From the sequence record OR880646.1: 64,000 bases of DNA; one strand, written 5' to 3'. The DNA is from Escherichia phage ECP2301. Both the position numbers and the translations under genes were made by a program. Positions 7,682 through 57,697 of this stretch are shown here, piece after piece. The number at the start of each line of letters is the position of its first letter. Within the stretch, counting starts at the first letter, position 1. The notes beneath the pieces are model-generated. The model searched no databases, had not been told where the DNA came from, and worked only from the letters and a program-made list of their open reading frames with translations.

Positions 7682-8152
7682 TTAATCATGTTTCCACACC
7701 CCATCGGTATTTGACCAAAGTCGCTGATTATCTGATCCTCGCCATAGCTTTTTGGTCGGAAGATTTTTCTCATACTTCCCATCAATAATAACATCAACAT
7801 ATTTAAGCATTTCTAGTTGTTTAATATCTTCAAATTTATATCCTGTCCACAACCAAATGCTTTTATTGGGATAAAGATTTTTTACTGTTTGAACAATGCA
7901 ATGAACAACATCTCTATTATCAGGATAGAGGGGGTCTCCCCCAGTTATAGTTAATCCTTCTATATAATCATTATTCAAACATTCAATTAATTGTTCCAGT
8001 GTTTCACCAGTGAATGGAACGCCATTTCTAGCGTTCCATGTTGATTTATTATAACACCCTTCGCATTTATGCAAACAACCTGTAACGAAAAGAACGACCC
8101 TGCATCCAGGGCCATTCACAAAATCGCAAGGATAAAATCTATCATAATTCAT
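7682..8152 (-). CDS. nrdG: anaerobic ribonucleotide reductase activating protein (radical SAM)
   Basis: 156 aa; CLHKCEGC radical-SAM cysteine cluster; overlaps nrdD stop. Confidence 0.9.
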   Translation of the reverse strand: MNYDRFYPCDFVNGPGCRVVLFVTGCLHKCEGCYNKSTWNARNGVPFTGETLEQLIECLNNDYIEGLTITGGDPLYPDNRDVVHCIVQTVKNLYPNKSIWLWTGYKFEDIKQLEMLKYVDVIIDGKYEKNLPTKKLWRGSDNQRLWSNTDGVWKHD

Positions 8153-9966
8153 TGGTGTTTAACCCTATGCATGATTTCTTTATTTTTGCCAAGATTAAAT
8201 CCACGTTCGTTCGGATTTCCCAAATAACCACAAGTTCTTCTTATTGTGTTCATCTTTTTAGGATCAGTTTCTCCACAAATAGAACAAACAAACCCGTTTT
8301 CAGTAGGAGTCATTTCATGGGTACTTCCACACGTAAAACATTTATCTACTGGCATATTAACGCCAAAATAATCTAAATGTTGTGCAGCATAATCCCATAC
8401 AGCCTCAAGACCCTTTAGGTTATTTTTCATATCAGGAAGTTCAACATAAGAAATGTGACCACCTGTCGCAATGAAATGATATGGTGCTTCGCGAGAAATC
8501 TTTTCAAACGGTGTGATATTTTCTTCTACTGAAACGTGGAAACTATTAGTGTACCAGCCTTTATCAGTAACATCTTTTACACTTCCATATTTTTCAGTAT
8601 CAAGTTTACAGAAGCGATAGCACAGGTTTTCAGCAGGAGTAGAATACAAGCTAAAAGCAAAACCGGTTCTTTCAGTCCACTGCTTAAGACGAGCATTCAT
8701 TTTAGTTAAAATTTCCTGTCCAATATCACGACCGACAAGAATATTCAATTCGTGAATACCAATGTATCCTAGGGACACTGAACTTCTACCGTTTTTAAAT
8801 AACTCAATTATGTCGTCATCGGGTTTAAGACGAACCCCGAATGCACCTTCTTGGTAAAGAATAGGAGCAACAGTCGCTTTAACTCCTTTTAAGGAACTAA
8901 TTCTACACATCAAAGCTTCAAAACACAAATCCATTCGTTCATTGAACAATTCGGCAAATTTCTGTTCATTGAATTGTGTTCCAATATAAGAATCTAACGC
9001 AATACGAGGAAGATTCAGTGTTACAACGCCAAGATTATTACGTCCATCAAGAATTTCATTACCAGTCGAATCTTTCCATACGCTTAAGAAACTACGGCAA
9101 CCCATTGGAGAAACAGGAATAGATGAACCGGTGATAGCTTTATTGTTCTTAGCTGAAATAATATCAGGATACATTCTTTTGCTTGCACACTCTAGAGCAA
9201 GCTGCTTAATATCATAGTTCGGATCGTCTTTATAAAGATTAACACCTTCTTCAACGAACATAACAAGCTTAGGGAAAATAGGAGTTATCCCATCGCGACC
9301 AAGGCCTTTAATGCGATTTTTCAGAATTGCTTTCTGAATCATTCGTTCAGTCCAGTCAGTTCCCGTACCAAATGTAATTGTTACAAAAGGCGTTTGTCCG
9401 TTTGAACTAAAGAGAGTATTTACTTCATATTCATAAGCTTGGAATGCGTCGTATACATCTTTTTCTGTTTTAGATTGGGCATAATTCAACGCATCAGCGA
9501 TTTGCCATTTTTCTGCATCCTCAATATGTTTTGCATAGGTGCGTTTAACATAAGGAGAAAGTACTTTATCTACATTCGCAAAAGTCGTTCCGCCATATTG
9601 ATGGGAAGCAACCTGTGCAGTAATTTGTGCCATAATTGCAGTAGCAACGCCGATTGATTTAGGAGTTTCAATCTGTGCATTACCGAGCTTAAATCCGTTT
9701 TCAAGCATTCCTTTTAAATCTACTAAACAGCAATTAGTAAATGGAAGAGCAGGGGAATAATCAATATCATGGAAATGGATAATTCCGCTTTCATGCGCTT
9801 TCATAATAAAAGACGGGACCATATTTTTGGCAATGTGTTTAGACACAATACCAGCCATAAGGTCCCGTTGAGTTGGAAAAACACGAGAATCTTTATTAGC
9901 ATTCTCGTTCAAAAGGTCTTTATTAGTTTTATGAATCAATCCTTCAATTTCTTTTTCAATTGTCAT
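8149..9966 (-). CDS. nrdD: anaerobic ribonucleoside-triphosphate reductase (class III, glycyl radical)
   Basis: 605 aa uninterrupted; C-terminal glycyl-radical motif RRTCGYLG; zinc-ribbon CxxC..CxxC. Confidence 0.93.
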   Translation of the reverse strand: MTIEKEIEGLIHKTNKDLLNENANKDSRVFPTQRDLMAGIVSKHIAKNMVPSFIMKAHESGIIHFHDIDYSPALPFTNCCLVDLKGMLENGFKLGNAQIETPKSIGVATAIMAQITAQVASHQYGGTTFANVDKVLSPYVKRTYAKHIEDAEKWQIADALNYAQSKTEKDVYDAFQAYEYEVNTLFSSNGQTPFVTITFGTGTDWTERMIQKAILKNRIKGLGRDGITPIFPKLVMFVEEGVNLYKDDPNYDIKQLALECASKRMYPDIISAKNNKAITGSSIPVSPMGCRSFLSVWKDSTGNEILDGRNNLGVVTLNLPRIALDSYIGTQFNEQKFAELFNERMDLCFEALMCRISSLKGVKATVAPILYQEGAFGVRLKPDDDIIELFKNGRSSVSLGYIGIHELNILVGRDIGQEILTKMNARLKQWTERTGFAFSLYSTPAENLCYRFCKLDTEKYGSVKDVTDKGWYTNSFHVSVEENITPFEKISREAPYHFIATGGHISYVELPDMKNNLKGLEAVWDYAAQHLDYFGVNMPVDKCFTCGSTHEMTPTENGFVCSICGETDPKKMNTIRRTCGYLGNPNERGFNLGKNKEIMHRVKHQ

Positions 9967-10485: not shown

Positions 10486-10950
10486 TTAAAACGCTCGGTC
10501 AGAAAAAGAAATTTGAGTTTCAAGCCATTCAATGTATTCTGCCGCAGCTTGCATCAAATTTCCTTCATAACCATCGTTATTTTCTTGTGCAGCTAATTTA
10601 GCTAATGCATATGAAATGCGTTCACCTTGAAAAGCGGCTTTAGGTTTATGAATAACTTGATCAACTCGTTCTACGACCTCTTCAATTTCGCCATTTTCTA
10701 CTGATTCAGTATTCCACAAGCACCAATACGTAATTGGCTTATCGTAGATGTTAATAACCTTTCCGCCAGAAAGTTCAATTTCAATAATTCCAGTATCAGG
10801 TTCTATATCATCTTCGCATTCTTTTGCAAGTTCACGAACTTTAAAGACAGTACCTGCACTAAGTTCCGGCCAATAATTACACAGCCCTTTATCAGCACGA
10901 TTAATTCTAAACCACTTATCTACTGTAATCATGTCCCATCTCCATATCAA
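10486..10950 (-). CDS. hypothetical acidic protein (pin/49.x region of T4 map)
   Basis: 154-aa ORF between 49 and nrdC; identity as protease inhibitor Pin not verifiable from memory. Confidence 0.5.
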   Translation of the reverse strand: MIWRWDMITVDKWFRINRADKGLCNYWPELSAGTVFKVRELAKECEDDIEPDTGIIEIELSGGKVINIYDKPITYWCLWNTESVENGEIEEVVERVDQVIHKPKAAFQGERISYALAKLAAQENNDGYEGNLMQAAAEYIEWLETQISFSDRAF

Positions 10951-11055
10951 TTAAGTCATTTATCGTTGGTTCATTATATACTGTTTCTTCATCAGTGTAA
11001 ACCGGTTCTTCCGGCTCTGGCTCTACTGTTTCCCATCTAGCCGCCCACCAAGGTT

Positions 11056-11376
11056 TTATAGCGTAATCCATTCTCGTATTGTCTGAGTTACTACACGTTC
11101 ACGGGGCTCGACTAGTTCAACAGTCGGAACTGCATAATACCAGTCAGAATGGTAAGAACCTGAGCGAGATTCATTTACAGACACATGAACGTTATGTTTT
11201 GGACTAAAATAAACACACTGACGATATTGGCATTTACCATCTTGCACCCAGTCTTCTATTTCGATAGGTTTAAGATAATCCGAAAAATCGAAATCATAAT
11301 TTTCTGAAAATGCATCATGGTCTTCGATGATTTCGCTCAGAACTGCATCAACATCTAATTTATTTTCAATAGTCAT
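11056..11376 (-). CDS. hypothetical protein
   Basis: 106-aa acidic ORF. Confidence 0.5.
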   Translation of the reverse strand: MTIENKLDVDAVLSEIIEDHDAFSENYDFDFSDYLKPIEIEDWVQDGKCQYRQCVYFSPKHNVHVSVNESRSGSYHSDWYYAVPTVELVEPRERVVTQTIREWITL

Positions 11377-19054: not shown

Positions 19055-19105
19055 ATCAGTTGATAGTTGTATAGTACCATAAAGCTTTATGCTTGTAAAC
19101 CGTTT
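19055..19105 (-). promoter_or_regulatory. early promoter, TACTAT variant with conserved leader
   Basis: Minus strand GTTTACaagcataaagctttaTGgTACTATacaactatcaactgatacgg; near-identical copies at 17625-17665 and 34150-34186. Confidence 0.55.
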
Positions 19106-19128
19106 TGTGAAAAAATTTTTGAAATAAA

Positions 19129-19151
19129 AAAGGGAGCCCGAAGGCTCCCTA
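19129..19151 (-). terminator. intrinsic terminator (GGGAGCC-UUCG-GGCUCCC + U5)
   Basis: Plus aaaagggagcccgaaggctccc; minus RNA hairpin followed by UUUUU. Confidence 0.6.
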
Positions 19152-27204: not shown

Positions 27205-27464
27205 ATACTGGCTTCTTTGAGTTTCGTTTTAGCAATAGTTAACTGATCGAGGCTTTCAGCATAATTCTTCGCGAATTCACAGTCTTCACAATTATCCAGT
27301 GCTTCCCAAAATTCATCGTATAAAGCGTCAAAGATAAGTCCTAAACGAACTTCAGCATCTTTGATAGCATTCACTTTACCGATTTTCTCTTCAGTATGTG
27401 GCTTATAACCTTTAATATCTTCAATCATATTTGACTTCCTCACCAGTACATAAATCATATTCAA
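27162..27464 (-). CDS. hypothetical acidic protein
   Basis: 100-aa ORF. Confidence 0.5.
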
Positions 27465-27642
27465 CTAAACGAATAGGTTCATGAATGCCATATCCTTGAA
27501 CAGAAATTTCTGTCGTAGGATAAATTCCATCAATATCACCCATGGTCCACGCTTCATTAAATTGCTGTTCGCCTGAATTACTAAACCACTCGGCGAAAGC
27601 ATTTAACACATCTTTAGAACCTTCAATAATTATCTTTGCCAT
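27421..27642 (-). CDS. small hypothetical protein
   Basis: 73-aa ORF. Confidence 0.45.
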   Translation of the reverse strand: MAKIIIEGSKDVLNAFAEWFSNSGEQQFNEAWTMGDIDGIYPTTEISVQGYGIHEPIRLVEYDLCTGEEVKYD

Positions 27643-28004
27643 TACAGACTCTCAGTAAAGGTACGAGCGATAACGTCGCGCTGCTGTTCCGGAGTCAGAG
27701 AGTTAAAGCGAACTGCATAACCGGATACACGGATGGTCAGCTGCGGATATTTTTCCGGATGCTTAACTGCATCTTCAAGAGTTTCACGACGCAGAACGTT
27801 TACGTTCAAGTGTTGACCACCTTCAATTTTAACTGTAGGCTGTGGTTCAATTTCAATTTCACGGGCATGCAAACCGTAGAAAATTTCTGGGTCTACAAAA
27901 GAGTCCTCTTTAAAGGTTTTAGAAACAATAATTCGTGCTTGAATACCATCTTCAAAATAAATAGTACCTTTATGTGTGCCTTCAAGAATTTGATATGCTT
28001 TCAT
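27642..28004 (-). CDS. autonomous glycyl-radical cofactor (GrcA/YfiD-like; T4 Y06I-like)
   Basis: 120 aa; C-terminal [59 protein letters not shown] carries glycyl-radical signature RVSGYAV and is near-identical to E. coli GrcA as recalled. Confidence 0.85.
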
Positions 28005-28010
28005 ATAACC

Positions 28011-28340
28011 TCAATTAGAAAATAAATTTATCCAAGACTGTTCTTTAATTAAAAATGGCTCAGAATCATATGCCATTAAACTTTGGGTGATTAGTCCTTT
28101 AAAAGGACCATCAATAAATTCCATGGTAAAATATGGAATTTTATTCATTAATCTTGCATTAGGAGCAGTACACAAAACTCTGCATCCTTTGAATACACCT
28201 TTTTGTAATTTGTATTGCTTATGATAAAATTCGCTCAAGACGTTGTTATTTGCCAAAATTTCAAAATGATTCACCAATTTATTTTTAATAGTTTTTGGCG
28301 AAAAATAAAGATATTCGAAAAGCTGTGTGTCTGTCATCAT
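28011..28340 (-). CDS. hypothetical protein
   Basis: ORF track 126 aa; start moved to internal Met to avoid overlap. Confidence 0.45.
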   Translation of the reverse strand: MMTDTQLFEYLYFSPKTIKNKLVNHFEILANNNVLSEFYHKQYKLQKGVFKGCRVLCTAPNARLMNKIPYFTMEFIDGPFKGLITQSLMAYDSEPFLIKEQSWINLFSN

Positions 28341-28924
28341 TGCATTCCGATTACGAAAAACTGCGGACGAGTAATACCACCAATGCAACATTTAATATTA
28401 CAGCAGTAGTGTACAGTGTCAATATGGACGCTATAAATCTTATCCATATCAGGAGATTTAACAGGCTCATCGATTATATACAAAATCCGCGAAAGCGATA
28501 AACCTCTGAACTTGCTTCCTTTATTACCGATAAAACTACGGACAGAATCAGTAAATAAGCGGAATCGAATATCATCACTAGAATAACGAGAAAATTCTTT
28601 TTTAATGTGGCCTGCAGAAATTTTAGCGTAAGCTGAAGTATTAGAAAGAACAATAACTGTTCCACCATCATACAGCCAATTAGCAGCAAAGTTAGTCACA
28701 GCAGTTGATTTACCAGATTGACGTCCACCATCTAGTCGAAGTGTACAATATTGTTTAAGCAAGTCTTCAAATGGTGGGATATAATCGTTTTTACAAATTT
28801 CTTCTACTCTAGCATCAGAATGGTGTGTAAAAGCATTCATCAGGGATAGATAAGGGCCAGTTAAAAATGTTCTCATTTTATTATCTCTAAATTTGGGCCA
28901 TTCCATGGCGCATGAATTGTCCAT
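28337..28924 (-). CDS. P-loop NTPase-like protein
   Basis: 195 aa; Walker A GGRQSGKST and Walker B-like ILYIIDE. Confidence 0.5.
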   Translation of the reverse strand: MDNSCAMEWPKFRDNKMRTFLTGPYLSLMNAFTHHSDARVEEICKNDYIPPFEDLLKQYCTLRLDGGRQSGKSTAVTNFAANWLYDGGTVIVLSNTSAYAKISAGHIKKEFSRYSSDDIRFRLFTDSVRSFIGNKGSKFRGLSLSRILYIIDEPVKSPDMDKIYSVHIDTVHYCCNIKCCIGGITRPQFFVIGMQ

Positions 28925-29030: not shown

Positions 29031-29504
29031 TTATTTGAATGATTTGACGTACTGAATAGAGCCTTTGCTATTCACGAAAGCGATTTTACCATTTTTGTTA
29101 TACATGGTAGCAGTACGCTGATAACCATAAGTTTGCTTACCAGATTGATAACCAACTAATGCAAAATTATCTTCACCCATTTTATTCTGCTTCGCGCGGA
29201 TACGTTCATGACCGTGCGCCATAAGAACCTTAGCATCGCCAGTTGAAATTGATCTACGAGTTTTTTCATCTTCAACTGTACTAACAAAGTCGTCAAATGA
29301 ATCAAATTTAGCATGAGATTTATTATACAGTTTTCCATCTACTGCATAATTATATCCCTGTACATCCATCTCAACTTCTGTACCATCATCCAATACAGCA
29401 GTGATTTTTTGACCTTTTTTAAATTTCAAAAGATCAGTAAAAGATTCAGCAATAATTTGAGAATTAATAGCTGCTTCAGTGATAAATTCTTGATATGTTT
29501 TCAT
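29031..29504 (-). CDS. internal-protein candidate with capsid targeting sequence
   Basis: 157 aa beginning MKTYQEFITEA, matching the T4 IPIII CTS MKTYQEFIAE as recalled; late promoter upstream. Confidence 0.6.
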   Translation of the reverse strand: MKTYQEFITEAAINSQIIAESFTDLLKFKKGQKITAVLDDGTEVEMDVQGYNYAVDGKLYNKSHAKFDSFDDFVSTVEDEKTRRSISTGDAKVLMAHGHERIRAKQNKMGEDNFALVGYQSGKQTYGYQRTATMYNKNGKIAFVNSKGSIQYVKSFK

Positions 29505-35028: not shown

Positions 35029-35502
35029 TTATTTGATTTGTTTAGCAGACCAAATGCGGTCTTTAATAATTTTTTGGATGTCTTCAACATACTCAAGAGA
35101 GTGAACATGTGGATTATCTTTGAAACTATAAGCACGGGCTAACTTTTGGCCTTCGGTTTTGATTACTAAAAGCTCTTTAAGGATAGCTTCATATTTAGCG
35201 ATAATTCCTTTAACGATATTTTTTTCTTGTGCCGCTTTAGGATCTGCTTTAGGAGCAGGTTTACCCGAAGGCTTTGCAAAAGCAGCGCCAGTAGCAACTA
35301 AACTTTTCCAGGCCATACTAACTGCATTTCCCGTAAATCCTTCTGCTTTCATGTCGCGAGCAAATTGGAATCGTGATTCGTCAGAAGCATCTTTATAAGA
35401 ATATTTACCCGCTGCAATGGCTGCTTTTGCGACAGCTTGAATTTCGGTGCTAGATGCTTCATTTAACACCGCTTCATTTAAAAATTGAGCATATGATTTC
35501 AT
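35029..35502 (-). CDS. internal-protein candidate with capsid targeting sequence
   Basis: 157 aa beginning MKSYAQFLNEA; Ala/Lys-rich. Confidence 0.55.
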   Translation of the reverse strand: MKSYAQFLNEAVLNEASSTEIQAVAKAAIAAGKYSYKDASDESRFQFARDMKAEGFTGNAVSMAWKSLVATGAAFAKPSGKPAPKADPKAAQEKNIVKGIIAKYEAILKELLVIKTEGQKLARAYSFKDNPHVHSLEYVEDIQKIIKDRIWSAKQIK

Positions 35503-35542
35503 CTTATTTCCTGTTTTAATTCGTGGATTTAATATACTACTA

Positions 35543-35550
35543 TATTTATA
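35543..35550 (-). promoter_or_regulatory. late promoter (TATAAATA) upstream of internal-protein gene
   Basis: Plus tatttata. Confidence 0.5.
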
Positions 35551-35579
35551 CTAAAAAGCCCCAACCTTTCGGTCGGGGC
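35550..35579 (-). terminator. intrinsic terminator ending the tRNA/stable-RNA transcript
   Basis: Plus ctaaaaagccccaacctttcggtcggggctaag; stem-loop is the reverse complement of the copy at 34999-35020 with identical flanks. Confidence 0.6.
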
Positions 35580-35631
35580 TAAGCCTTGCGGCAACCTTGT
35601 CGGGGTTCCACCTGCTAAGGCAAGTGTTTGT

Positions 35632-35723
35632 ACGAAACGCCGGGATTCGAACCCGGTTATTAAGCAGTTGACGCTACTCAATATTTTTAAAAGGCCATAT
35701 CTCGACCATATCCGAACGTTCCG
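35632..35723 (-). ncRNA. tRNA-like stable RNA element (possible homologue of T4 species 1/2 RNAs rnaC/rnaD)
   Basis: Perfect T-arm CCGGG-TTCGAAT-CCCGG and 7-bp acceptor-like helix, but no canonical D-arm or anticodon arm; ORF-free region 35583-35890. Confidence 0.3.
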
Positions 35724-35891
35724 TCAAAAACGCTACTCGGCTTACGGCAAAGATATTTCCTCGAATCGATAATTCGGTGCGCCGTTTCTGCTGTGATGTA
35801 AGAGGGAATCAACAAATCATAAAGATTTATTAACACAATTCCTTACCCAGGGAACATCAGTCCGACGACTTACCGGTAGCGACCCGGTTTC

Positions 35892-36242
35892 TTAATATTC
35901 TTTTAAAGCATCAATCTGTTCACGACGTTTACGCCATAAATCAATTACTTCATACGCAGATTCAGCATTTCGAATTGGACGGCATTTATATAAAGACTTG
36001 TGATTTTGATATTGCGTAGATAATGGAATTTTATCTAAAAGGTCTTTACGTTCAAAGTATTCGTAACCATCTAAGCCAAATGAACGATTTTTGAGAAATT
36101 GCCAATGACCATATTCGTTTTCGACATAAACATAATCTGCGTGCTGATAAAGCAAATTAATTACACGTTCAGAAATAACAGTGTCATTATGATTAAAATA
36201 GAATGTTAAATCATGAACTACTAAATAAACATTACCTTTCAT
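35892..36242 (-). CDS. hypothetical protein in tRNA region
   Basis: 116-aa ORF between stable-RNA region and tRNA-Arg. Confidence 0.5.
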   Translation of the reverse strand: MKGNVYLVVHDLTFYFNHNDTVISERVINLLYQHADYVYVENEYGHWQFLKNRSFGLDGYEYFERKDLLDKIPLSTQYQNHKSLYKCRPIRNAESAYEVIDLWRKRREQIDALKEY

Positions 36243-36259
36243 ATTTTCCTCACTTAATT

Positions 36260-36335
36260 GGTCGAGGCAGTAGGGATCGAACCTACGACCTAGGACTTAG
36301 AAGGTCCTTGCTCTTCCTTCTGAGCTATGCCCCGT
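36260..36335 (-). tRNA. tRNA-Arg (anticodon UCU)
   Basis: Hand-folded cloverleaf: anticodon loop CUUCUAA, T-loop GGTTCGATCC, CCA encoded. Confidence 0.8.
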
Positions 36336-36339
36336 AATT

Positions 36340-36415
36340 GGGGTGACCGATGGGAGTCGAACCCATGACTACGAGAATCACAATCTCGAGTTCTACCAAC
36401 TGAACTACGGCCACA
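36340..36415 (-). tRNA. tRNA-His (anticodon GUG), no encoded G-1
   Basis: Acceptor GTGGCCG/CGGTCAC, anticodon loop TTGTGAT, discriminator C73, CCA encoded; base at -1 is U. Confidence 0.7.
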
Positions 36416-36529
36416 TTAATACCTACTCCAACAATCAAGATGTCTTCACACGAAATTAAGAGAAGAGTGATCAGTTCAACCCCTATAATCGCGTCAAGTA
36501 GATATTAATGTGACAGTTGTCACAAATTT

Positions 36530-36604
36530 GGCGGACGTGATAGGATTCGAACCTATAACCAATCGCTTAACAGGCGATCGCTCTGCCATTGAGCTACACA
36601 TCCA
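36530..36604 (-). tRNA. tRNA-Asn (anticodon GUU)
   Basis: Acceptor GGATGTG/CACGTCC, anticodon loop CTGTTAA, T-loop GGTTCGAATCC, CCA encoded. Confidence 0.75.
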
Positions 36605-36608
36605 AATT

Positions 36609-36695
36609 GGTGGGGAGTGGTGGAGTCGAACCACCCGAGTCGCAATGACAATGGATTTACAGTCCACACCGCTACCTATACGGGATAACTCCCCA
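36609..36695 (-). tRNA. tRNA-Tyr (anticodon GUA), type II with long variable arm
   Basis: Acceptor GGGGAGT/ACTCCCC, anticodon loop CTGTAAA, T-loop GGTTCGACTCC, CCA encoded, 87 nt. Confidence 0.7.
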
Positions 36696-36704
36696 AATTA
36701 ATTT

Positions 36705-36779
36705 GGTGGCCCTGGGTGGAATTGAACCACCATCTGGCGATTATGAGTCGCTTGCTTGAACCTTCCAGCTACAGGGCCT
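36705..36779 (-). tRNA. tRNA with anticodon CAU (Ile2-type as in T4, or Met)
   Basis: Acceptor GGCCCTG/CAGGGCC, anticodon loop CTCATAA, T-loop GGTTCAATTCC, CCA encoded. Confidence 0.7.
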
Positions 36780-36780
36780 T

Positions 36781-36856
36781 GGTGCTGATTGACGGAATTG
36801 AACCGCCGACCTTCTCATTACAAGTGAGTTGCTCTACCTACTGAGCTAAATCAGCA
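36781..36856 (-). tRNA. tRNA-Thr (anticodon UGU)
   Basis: Acceptor GCTGATT/AATCAGC, anticodon loop CTTGTAA, CCA encoded. Confidence 0.8.
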
Positions 36857-36861
36857 AAACT

Positions 36862-36951
36862 GGCGGAGGCGATAGGATTTGAACCTATGAGTCGCCGGAG
36901 CGACTGCCGGTTTTCAAGACCGGTGCATTAAACCACTCTGCCACGCCTCCA
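36862..36951 (-). tRNA. tRNA-Ser (anticodon UGA), type II
   Basis: Acceptor GGAGGCG/CGCCTCC, anticodon loop CTTGAAA, long variable arm, CCA encoded, 90 nt. Confidence 0.8.
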
Positions 36952-36953
36952 GT

Positions 36954-37027
36954 CTCCATACAAGGATTTGAACCTTGGACCTCCTGATCCCAAATCAGGC
37001 GCTCTACCAAACTGAGCTACACGGAGT
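36954..37027 (-). tRNA. tRNA-Pro (anticodon UGG), CCA not encoded
   Basis: Anticodon loop TTTGGGA; 2 nt upstream of tRNA-Ser, forming a Pro-Ser dimer as in T4. Confidence 0.8.
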
Positions 37028-37036
37028 AAATTAAAT

Positions 37037-37111
<75 letters not shown>

Positions 37112-37116
37112 AATTT

Positions 37117-37203
37117 GGTGCGAGAAGTGGGACTCGAACCCACAAGGAAATCATTCCGCAGCATTTTAAGTGCTGTGCCTTTACCAATTTGGCCATTCTC
37201 GCG
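37117..37203 (-). tRNA. tRNA-Leu (anticodon UAA), type II
   Basis: Acceptor GCGAGAA/TTCTCGC, anticodon loop CTTAAAA, long variable arm, CCA encoded. Confidence 0.8.
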
Positions 37204-37204
37204 C

Positions 37205-37277
37205 TGGGAATAAAGGACTCGAACCTTTGCATCCTGGAATCAAAATCCAGTGCCTTACCAACTTGGCTAATTCCCAA
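37205..37277 (-). tRNA. tRNA-Gln (anticodon UUG), CCA not encoded
   Basis: Acceptor TGGGAAT/ATTCCCA, anticodon loop TTTTGAT; 1 nt upstream of tRNA-Leu (Gln-Leu dimer as in T4). Confidence 0.8.
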
Positions 37278-54657: not shown

Positions 54658-56237
54658 GTAATAATACATATCAACACGTTTCTAATGAATCTCGCTATGT
54701 GAAATTTGATCCAACCGGTACAAATTTTCCGGCAGAGATTACTGATGTTCAGGCTGCTATAGCAGCCATTTCTCCTGCTGGTGTAAATGGAGTTCCTGAC
54801 GCATCATCAACAACAAAGGGAATTTTATTTCTTGCCACTGAACAGGAAGTTATCGACGGAACTGATAATACCAAAGCAGTTACACCAGCAACGTTGGCAA
54901 CAAGATTATCTTATCCAAACGCAACTGAAACTGTTTATGGATTAACAAGATATTCAACCAATGATGAAGCAATTGCCGGAGTTAATAATGAATCTTCTAT
55001 AACTCCCGCTAAATTTACTGTTGCCCTTAATAATGCCTTTGAAACTCGTGTTTCAACTGAATCATCAAATGGAGTTATTAAAATTTCATCTCTACCGCAA
55101 GCATTAGCTGGCGCAGATGATACTACTGCAATGACTCCGTTAAAAACGCAGCAGTTAGCTATTAAATTAATTGCGCAAATCGCTCCTTCTGAAACCACAG
55201 CTACCGAATCTGACCAAGGTGTTGTTCAATTAGCGACAGTAGCTCAAGTTCGTCAAGGAACATTAAGAGAAGGCTATGCAATTTCTCCTTATACGCTAAT
55301 GAATTCTACTGCTACTGAAGAATATAAAGGCGTAATTAAATTAGGAACACAATCAGAAGTTAACTCGAATAATGCTTCTGTTGCGGTTACTGGCGCAACT
55401 CTTAATGGTCGTGGTTCTACAACGTCAATGAGAGGCGTAGTTAAATTAACTACAACCGCCGGCTCACAGAGTGGAGGTGATGCTTCATCAGCACTAGCTT
55501 GGAATGCTGACGTTATCCACCAAAGAGGTGGTCAAACGATTAATGGAACACTTCGCATTAATAATACGCTCACAATAGCTTCAGGCGGAGCAAATATTAC
55601 CGGAACAGTTAACATGACCGGTGGTTATATTCAAGGTAAGCGTGTTGTAACGCAGAATGAAATAGATAGAACTATTCCTGTCGGAGCTATTATGATGTGG
55701 GCGGCTGATAGCCTTCCTAGTGATGCTTGGCGCTTCTGTCATGGCGGAACTGTTTCAGCATCAGATTGTCCATTATATGCTTCTAGAATTGGAACAAGAT
55801 ACGGCGGAAGTTCATCAAATCCTGGATTACCTGATATGCGTGGCCTTTTTGTTCGCGGCTCTGGTCGTGGCTCTCACTTAACAAATCCAAACGTTAATGG
55901 TAATGACCAATTTGGCAAGCCTAGATTAGGCGTAGGTTGTACCGGTGGATATGTTGGCGAAGTACAAAAACAGCAGATGTCTTATCATAAACACGCTGGC
56001 GGATTCGGTGAGCATGATGATTCTGGAGCATTCGGTAATACCCGCAGATCAAATTTTGTTGGTACACGTAAAGGACTTGACTGGGATAACCGTTCATACT
56101 TCACCAATGACGGTTATGAAATTGACCCAGCATCACAACGAAATTCCAAATATACATTAAATCGTCCTGAATTAATTGGAAATGAAACACGTCCATGGAA
56201 CATTTCTTTAAACTACATAATTAAGGTAAAAGAATGA
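54654..56237 (+). CDS. 12: short tail fibre protein gp12
   Basis: 527 aa as T4 gp12; repetitive Thr/Gly-rich fibre sequence. Confidence 0.92.
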
Positions 56238-57697
56238 CAGATATTGTACTGAATGACTTACCATTCGTTGACGGCCCTCCTGCAGAGGGCCAGAGCCGCA
56301 TTTCCTGGATTAAAAACGGCGAAGAAATATTAGGAGCTGACACACAGTATGGAAGCGAAGGTTCAATGAATAGACCTACAGTTTCTGTACTAAGAAATGT
56401 TGAAGTTCTTGATAAAAACATTGGAATACTTAAAACATCTTTAGAATCCGCGAATAGTGATATTAAAACAATTCAGGGCATCTTAGATGTATCTGGTGAT
56501 ATTGAAGCTTTGGCCCAAATAAGTATCAATAAAAATGATATTTCTGACCTTAAAACGCTAACCAGTGAACATACAGAAATATTAAATGGAACTAATAGTA
56601 CAGTTGACAGCATTCTTGCTGATATTGGTCCATTTAACTCCGAGGCAAACTCTGTATACAGAACGATCAGAAATGATTTACTATGGATAAAGCGTGAACT
56701 TGGACAATACACAGGTCAAGATATTAATGGTCTTCCTGTTGTAGGAAATCCTAGCACAGGAATGAAGCATCGCATTATTAATAATACTGATGTCATCACT
56801 TCACAGGGAATACGTTTAAGCGAATTAGAAACAAAATTCATTGAATCTGATGTAGGTTCTTTAACTATTGAAGTTGGTAATCTTCGCGAAGAGCTTGGAC
56901 CGAAACCACCGTCATTTTCACAAAACATCTACAGTCGTTTAAATGAAATTGACACTAAACAGACAACAGTTGAATCTGACATTAGTGCTATTAAGACCTC
57001 AATAGGATATCCAGGAAATAATTCGATTATTACGAGTGTTAATACAAACACTGATAATATTGCATCTATTAATTTAGAGCTAAATCAAAGTGGAGGTATT
57101 AAACAGCGTTTAACCGTTATTGAAACTTCTATTGGTTCAGATGATATTCCTTCGAGTATTAAAGGCCAAATCAAAGATAATACAACTTCAATCGAATCTC
57201 TAAATGGAATCGTCGGTGAAAACACTTCATCTGGTTTAAGAGCGAATGTTTCATGGTTAAACCAAATTGTTGGAACTGATTCTAGCGGTGGACAACCTTC
57301 TCCTCCTGGGTCTCTTTTAAACCGAGTTTCTACAATTGAAACTTCTGTTTCAGGCTTGAATAACGATGTTCAAAACCTACAAGTAGAGATTGGTAATAAC
57401 AGCACAGGAATTAAAGGGCAAGTTGTAGCGTTAAATACTTTAGTAAATGGAACTAATCCAAACGGTTCAACTGTTGAAGAACGCGGATTAACCAATTCAA
57501 TAAAAGCTAACGAAACCAACATCGCATCAGTTACACAAGAAGTGAATACAGCCAAAGGTAGTATATCTTCTCTGCAAGGTGATGTTCAAGCTCTACAAGA
57601 AGCAGGTTATATTCCTGAAGCTCCAAAAGATGGTCAAGCTTACGTTCGTAAAGACGGCGAATGGGTATTACTTTCTACCTTTTTATCACCAGCATAA
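56234..57697 (+). CDS. wac: fibritin (whiskers)
   Basis: 487 aa; heptad coiled coil and C-terminal foldon [27 protein letters not shown]. Confidence 0.95.

Follow-up and report, generated by a model that had tools for sequence, protein, structure and literature searches.

Among the host-derived auxiliary metabolic genes of phages, psbA of cyanophages is an example with intragenic recombination between host and phage. DNA in common with the host is very scarce in T4-like phages. How lateral transfer into such phages happens is a matter on which few clues exist, as noted in a review of T4-related genomes (PMC2993671). The locus studied here is the counterpart of T4 vs.6, whose product (Vs.6, also Y06I; NP_049730, NC_000866 63557-63919) is annotated as "autonomous glycyl radical cofactor GrcA". 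According to PMC8683613, which cites Wagner et al. 2001, E. coli YfiD (GrcA) and T4 Y06I are spare-part proteins of ~14 kDa, which are radicalised by the activating enzyme of pyruvate formate-lyase (PFL), associate in a complex with PFL that O2 has cleaved and make it active again. The same paper names YfiD and Y06I as the only two validated examples of such spare parts.

We analyzed a stretch of 64,000 nucleotides of Escherichia phage ECP2301 (OR880646.1), hereafter called the window, which contains a vs.6 orthologue. The gene, its annotation and its biochemical role are already known, and since the role has been known since 2001, no new system is added here. The host-matched DNA mosaic within the gene is a modest new evolutionary observation; our literature search found no published account of the host-identical tract or of its counterpart in Klebsiella phages, and an earlier mention is possible. 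Taking all evidence together, we consider it highly probable that the gene encodes a PFL spare part with a 3' half recently copied from the host and that a parallel event took place in Klebsiella phages.

Results

The vs.6 orthologue and its neighbourhood

The window is a segment of a T4-type phage genome that carries lysozyme e, denV, regB, vs.1, nrdD and nrdG, and its closest database relatives are Tequatrovirus genomes with 95-96% identity. The vs.6 orthologue, identified from the list of open reading frames (ORFs), occupies 27642..28004 including the stop codon and is encoded on the minus strand, as are its neighbours and the parts of the gene described below. It is flanked upstream by a vs.7 homologue (28011..28391, 126 aa, assigned from the ORF list and the T4 annotation) and downstream by a vs.5 homologue (27421..27642, 73 aa, assigned from the ORF list and the T4 and Shfl2 annotations), and it lies upstream of regB, in the same order as in T4 and Shfl2. 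The Pfam search gave no match for the vs.5 homologue. A sigma-70-like site just 5' of the vs.7 homologue (28422-28394) was assigned by consensus match only. The stop codon of vs.6 overlaps the start codon of the vs.5 homologue as TAATG at 27642, which suggests that translation of the two genes is coupled; the overlap probably also limits how far any host-derived tract in vs.6 can extend at its 3' end. The vs.7 homologue has 126 residues versus 109 in T4, and between denV and e a single ORF of 157 aa (29031-29504, minus strand) is found where T4 has ipII and ipIII.

The protein of 120 aa shares 119 residues with T4 Vs.6, the sole difference being R73 here and H73 in T4. It has the features by which GrcA/YfiD proteins are recognized: it is a small stand-alone protein, in the size range of about 120-130 aa, with a C-terminal glycyl radical domain, and this domain mimics PFL and carries the fingerprint RVSGYAV (residues 92-98, 27711..27731), which was located by translation and by alignments with GrcA and PFL. 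These alignments place the radical glycine at G95 (27720-27722), corresponding to G102 of GrcA and G734 of PflB. The Pfam family Gly_radical (PF01228) was matched at residues 61-101 with an E value of 2.8e-18 (66.8 bits versus a cutoff of 22.2 bits), and residues 61-120 are identical to residues 68-127 of E. coli GrcA. The best PDB match was E. coli GrcA (6OWR, E 8.6e-42, residues 22-120), and residues 697-759 of PFL were also matched (E 5.2e-26).

The NCBIfam equivalog model for GrcA, TIGR04365 (IPR011140), gave a score of 153.3 bits, which is below its cutoff of 170 bits, whereas E. coli GrcA scored 233.9 bits. The alignment to the model began at residue 20 (model position 25 onward), and the low score is due to the divergence of the N-terminus. 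Vs.6 is a phage-lineage homologue of GrcA with presumably GrcA-like function and is not an equivalog by the curated threshold; RefSeq still calls T4 Vs.6 "GrcA". PHROG 1209 was matched over the full length (residues 1-120, E 1.2e-62) and is labelled "unknown function" despite having one biochemically characterised member.

The 3' half of the gene nearly matches E. coli grcA

A blastn search against 5426 complete E. coli genomes matched grcA in all of them, and the match covered only nucleotides (nt) 179-363 of the phage gene (97.8% identity over 185 nt). Pairwise alignment with E. coli grcA showed ~45% nucleotide identity in the 5' half and then an abrupt, near-perfect match, which starts at GAAGGTGGTCAACAC and runs to the stop codon; downstream of the stop codon the alignment showed no host similarity. 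From the grcA alignment, the host-derived tract was delimited as gene nt 179-353 (codons 60-118, 27652..27826), which encode the glycyl radical domain. This tract contains only 2 mismatches to E. coli grcA in 175 nt, namely 196 C>T and 228 G>T. Since E. coli grcA alleles themselves differ by 1-2 bases (96.3-97.4% identity to the window across strains), some of these mismatches may be polymorphisms of the donor. Two further mismatches, 354 A>G and 357 C>T, are located in the final 10 nt, which include the stop codon (27642..27651); they are common to most phage copies and recur across those of Tequatrovirus and Mosigvirus.

The tract also stands out in composition. Its GC content is 48.0%, compared with 34% in the 5' part of the gene (nt 1-177, residues 1-59, 27828..28004) and 35.5% in the window, and it ranks in the top 0.84% of all 175-nt segments of the window. 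GC at third codon positions (GC3) is 41% in the tract versus 19% in the 5' part. When codon usage is scored with the phage's own table, the tract ranks among the lowest 1.1% of 58-codon segments: CTG, CCG, ATC and CGC are used in the tract, whereas the phage favours TTA, CCT, ATT and CGT/AGA. An initial annotation of this DNA, made from the letters alone, had proposed a GrcA-like protein of 120 aa at 27642-28004 with a C-terminal block of ~60 residues, including RVSGYAV, almost identical to GrcA, and had suggested scans of GC and codon usage. The ORF, the Pfam match and the identity of residues 61-120 bear out the protein and its block, and both scans revealed the expected heterogeneity. Its GC-rich block at about 27650-27850 is indeed GC-rich, with limits that have to be narrowed to 27652-27826 for the host-like part, and the AT-rich, phage-like region that it had described as the 5' third comprises the 5' half (177 nt).

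When the whole 64 kb was compared with the E. coli genomes by megablast, the grcA tract was the sole segment common to all genomes. The other matches were that of a tRNA-Tyr gene to a plasmid record, the one such record among the matches listed, and a 53-nt match in a single genome. GC-rich patches at 10930-11214, 35186-35897 and 55309-56429 (GC 0.49-0.51 in 175-nt segments) gave no megablast match in the E. coli genomes, and they are therefore not host-derived in the way that the grcA tract is. The tRNA-Tyr region (about 36605-36697) is 88% identical to tRNA-Tyr on the record of an E. coli O111:H8 plasmid and belongs to a group of 11 tRNA genes at 36259-37276 on the minus strand (Arg, His, Asn, Tyr, Met, Thr, Ser, Pro, Gly, Leu and Gln), while T4 has 8 tRNA genes. 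The 53-nt stretch at 19082-19134 is 98% identical to two places in the genome of E. coli strain BE104, neither with an annotated feature, and is absent from the other 5425 genomes.

A corresponding tract in Klebsiella phages

Phages of the genus Jiaodavirus, including Klebsiella phage KPV15, have an orthologous gene of 120 aa in the same neighbourhood, the N-terminal part of which is 71% identical at the amino acid level. In these homologues (KPV15, JD18-like) the host-identical tract begins at the same codon as in the window copy; it differs in its donor, which is K. pneumoniae grcA, and in its 3' junction, which lies ~15 nt further upstream. The tract of 158 nt has a GC content of 56% and is closest to K. 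pneumoniae grcA with 1-3 mismatches, followed by K. aerogenes grcA with 9-12 and E. coli grcA with 20-22. At 21 sites that are diagnostic between E. coli and K. pneumoniae, KPV15 has the K. pneumoniae state at 20, and the window copy has the E. coli state at all 21. The panel of 80 hosts used for comparison lacked K. pneumoniae, and against it the KPV15 tract was only 88% host-like; the donor was found in PLSDB records that are in fact chromosomes. Copies of the E. coli type and of the Klebsiella type alike retain phage-type sequence in the last 10-22 nt of the gene. The C-domains of the two types differ by E77L and K81E within the tract and by S119A in the phage-type tail. These data indicate that a replacement by host DNA also took place in T4-like phages of Klebsiella as an independent event, for which K. 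pneumoniae grcA was the donor.

In the KPV15 record (KY000080 / NC_055715, locus 1501-1859), the vs.6 homologue is put out of frame by the loss of 1 nt, which reflects either a sequencing error or a pseudogene, and the other Jiaodavirus records of this gene are intact (363 nt). Among the host records, CP125156.1 (K. pneumoniae, 5.37 Mb) is labelled "plasmid unnamed2" and is evidently a chromosome, and LR134122.1 (K. aerogenes) has four extra bases in grcA, the annotated coding sequence of which is shortened.

The 5' half and the proposed mode of replacement

Residues 1-59 are 31% identical to the N-terminal part of E. coli GrcA and 54-71% identical to those of the CC31-, RB16-, RB43- and KP15-like orthologues, which are colinear and also 120 aa long. 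No host-identical tract was found in these RB16/RB43-, KP15- and CC31-like orthologues: their C-domains show at most 83% DNA identity to any host of the panel, even where the protein is 100% identical, and their longest exact host match is at most 35 nt versus 125 nt in the window copy. As judged from these comparisons, the 5' part of the gene is not an unrelated ORF and represents an old phage lineage of grcA homologues. Since the last 10 nt are still of phage type, the 3' junction falls inside the gene, and these 10 nt likely mark the 3' edge of the replaced tract.

We considered whether the gene could have arisen by a one-off illegitimate capture, in which a piece from the 3' side of host grcA was joined to a phage ORF unrelated to it and no homologue had existed in the phage before. 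The host similarity, which falls sharply at codon 60 and ends exactly at the stop codon, would fit such a fusion, and so would the N-terminal 19 residues, which are not aligned to the GrcA model. However, residues 20-59 still align to GrcA, both in TIGR04365 and in BLASTP, where the alignment of Vs.6 to GrcA starts at residue 22. Colinear orthologues of 120 aa with the same N-terminal part and C-domains that are not host-like occur in several T4-like genera, and the 3' junction lies inside the homologous block, with the phage-type ends retained in both types of copies. We therefore regard such a capture as unlikely. The best and simplest model is that a host allele took the place of the 3' half in a grcA homologue that the phage already had. 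According to this replacement model, ~175 nt of the 3' half would have been recently overwritten by the chromosomal grcA allele of E. coli. To judge by the sequence pattern, the overwriting may have been a gene conversion, in which the phage gene underwent homologous recombination with the DNA of the infected host, and the tract would be just the block in which the phage and host copies are similar enough for pairing. The initial annotation had suggested a relatively recent capture of, or recombination with, a host gene; the DNA identity supports recombination, and what had been viewed as a possible fresh capture is rather a replacement of the 3' half.

Predicted function

Since the window protein differs from T4 Y06I by one residue, it is expected to restore O2-cleaved PFL in the same manner. 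The C-terminal 60 residues would stand in for the glycyl radical domain of PFL, of which they are a separately encoded copy. When oxygen cleaves active host PFL at Gly734, host PflA would put a glycyl radical on Vs.6, and Vs.6 would dock on the truncated PFL, by which the conversion of pyruvate to acetyl-CoA plus formate would be restored. T4 is not known to encode PFL or a PFL activase, and Vs.6 would therefore depend on PflA and PflB of the host. The phage would supply the repair part because the T4-infected cell presumably no longer makes its own GrcA or PflB. The benefit may be that fermentative energy metabolism is sustained in low-oxygen habitats such as the gut.

The genes for the anaerobic ribonucleotide reductase, nrdD (8149-9966, minus strand) and nrdG (7682-8152, minus strand), are located in the same window, and Vs.6 might instead be a spare part for the phage NrdD that is activated by NrdG, and not for host PFL. 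Spare parts for other glycyl radical enzymes are a subject of speculation in PMC8683613. However, BLASTP of Vs.6 against the NrdD of the window gave a best E value of 2.6, outside the glycyl radical region of NrdD, and this lack of significant similarity makes such a role very unlikely. The C-domain matches PFL residues 697-759 and is identical to that of host GrcA, and the T4 protein is reported to rescue PFL in vitro (Wagner et al. 2001, cited in PMC8683613), a rescue that the initial annotation had put forward as a check. The view of the initial annotation that vs.6, nrdD and nrdG form a complete glycyl-radical toolkit is thus right as to the presence of nrdD and nrdG and overstated as to "complete", since Vs.6 would depend on PflA and PflB of the host and, moreover, has no significant similarity to NrdD. 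We accordingly retain PFL as the probable target of Vs.6.

Protein conservation, donor and direction

The window copy was compared with a panel of 80 enterobacterial and related grcA genes. The grcA genes with a 98% identical C-domain protein have 77-89% DNA identity to the window copy, and E. coli grcA has 97.3% over 183 nt. Among the codons for the same residues, 56 of 60 are identical in E. coli versus 22-42 of 60 in other enterics. Where the proteins of two host genes are at least 98% identical, the DNA identity is 85.8% in the median and 91.8% at the 95th percentile. Since enteric genes for the same residues are only 77-89% identical, protein conservation cannot explain the match. The initial annotation had held that a nucleotide identity no higher than expected from amino acid conservation, together with uniform GC across the gene, would speak against a host origin; the nucleotide identity to host grcA is 97-99%, far above the range of the other enteric genes and above the median between hosts, and the GC is not uniform.

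Convergence, by which a highly constrained domain would have reached the nucleotide identity under selection for codon usage or mRNA structure and with no DNA transfer, could draw on the extreme conservation of the C-domain protein and on the unconverted phage copies, in which GC3 of the C-domain is also above that of the N-terminal part. Its probability is nevertheless negligible, since the RB16-like C-domain is 100% identical to that of E. coli in protein and only 83% identical in nucleotides, host genes for the same residues stay within the 77-89% range, and the phage base at the 21 diagnostic sites follows the phage's own host type, which contradicts this explanation. Transfer of DNA is indicated instead, and the E. 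coli state of all 21 sites in the window copy points to an Escherichia as the donor of the tract.

The two halves of E. coli grcA have a uniform, host-typical GC content (48.0 and 48.9%) and diverge in parallel from those of Citrobacter, Salmonella, Klebsiella and Enterobacter, and the gene sits in the chromosome between ung and eamB; the tract is therefore original to the host gene and foreign DNA in the phage. Although near-identity by itself gives no direction, the reverse transfer, by which E. coli and K. pneumoniae would have received the 3' half of grcA from their phages, is hardly conceivable in view of these features of the host gene and of the fact that the tract is an outlier in composition and codon usage in the phage and not in the host. 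The signs of a transfer of DNA from host to phage, namely identity at synonymous sites, sharp junctions and donor-like composition, are all present.

Distribution and number of events

At least 95% identity to E. coli grcA was found in 636 phage records (Tequatrovirus, Mosigvirus), always in the 3' 48% only, and at least 95% identity to nt 202-369 of K. pneumoniae grcA in 106 records of Klebsiella/Raoultella phages. Cross-comparisons of a phage tract with the other host gave 85-88%, which is equal to the identity between the two hosts (87.4%). The tract sequences attest to at least two independent events, one from E. coli and one from K. pneumoniae. Most phage copies carry 204 A>T, and Mosigvirus copies have further common changes. 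Because 204 A>T is common to most copies, much of the E. coli-type distribution seems to go back to one event that spread vertically or between phages. Later or repeated events of the E. coli type are hinted at by three features: Shfl2 has no mismatch in the 175 nt of the tract and the host base at site 357; the window copy lacks 204 A>T; and Tequatrovirus and Mosigvirus differ by a synonymous divergence of 0.42 in the 5' part versus 0.12 in the tract, the latter value being no higher than within the genera.

Tequatroviruses isolated on Yersinia, Serratia, Citrobacter and Salmonella keep the E. coli tract, and the K. aerogenes phage Nispero has the K. pneumoniae allele and not that of K. aerogenes. 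Host tracking is thus coarse, and a finer tracking is unsupported, since Nispero and the Tequatroviruses from other genera carry alleles that do not match their hosts. No phage tract matched grcA of Salmonella enterica (best 83.8%), and no tract of the Enterobacter type was found, all but one record being below 90% to Enterobacter sichuanensis grcA. One record (L110) with 91% identity to Yersinia grcA was rejected as a third phage example, as it has an N-terminal part of the bacterial type and is probably a chromosomal fragment.

GrcA-like proteins are also encoded on other contigs. Those of 120-151 aa on contigs of about 104-122 kb (L123-L149) and of 345-357 kb (L106, L108, L109), sizes that fit T5-like and jumbo enterobacterial phages, have C-domains with 63-75% identity to host grcA and no host-identical tract, and in GenBank they bear labels as diverse as "acetyltransferase" and "ribonucleotide reductase subunit". 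GrcA-like genes of 130-137 aa are present on metagenomic contigs of 33-154 kb (L100-L105, L112). The C-domains of L100-L102, L104 and L112 are closest to grcA of Pasteurellaceae (Gallibacterium, Haemophilus, Lonepinella; 79-83%), and those of L103 and L105 have their nearest counterparts in Pantoea and Phytobacter; these affinities hint that the contigs are from phages of those hosts.

Discussion

The sequences of vs.6 show where the junctions lie, which species was the donor and that a second phage genus underwent a parallel event, which makes the gene a clean natural example of homologous replacement from host to phage in a strictly virulent phage. A broader reading, which we put forward tentatively and hold to be somewhat less probable than its opposite, is that vs.6 may be a standing hotspot of gene conversion from host to phage, in which T4-like phages would time and again overwrite the half encoding the radical domain with the allele of their present host and so keep it matched to PflA and PflB of that host. 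If this were true, the tract would be a datable molecular record of host association, and the gene would lend itself as a natural assay of recombination between a virulent phage and the host DNA that it destroys.

The closest described system is T4 Vs.6, which has the same length, the same neighbours (vs.7, vs.5 and regB) and the same host-like 3' tract, likewise with 2 mismatches to E. coli within the tract. The window copy differs from it by R73, which is the residue of E. coli where T4 has H73, and by a few synonymous changes. E. coli GrcA (YfiD) has the same C-terminal 60 residues, the same fingerprint and the same overall architecture, and the DNA of its C-domain is 98.9% identical. In contrast, the N-terminal 59 residues of the phage protein, which is 7 residues shorter, are those with 31% identity, and the gene, unlike E. 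coli grcA, is phage-encoded and AT-rich in its 5' half. Similarly to genes of the cyanophage psbA type, the phage copy would sustain host metabolism and swap segments with the host allele. Unlike in psbA, only half of a very small gene was exchanged and the identity is near 99%, and the product of vs.6 would repair a damaged host enzyme and not replace it.
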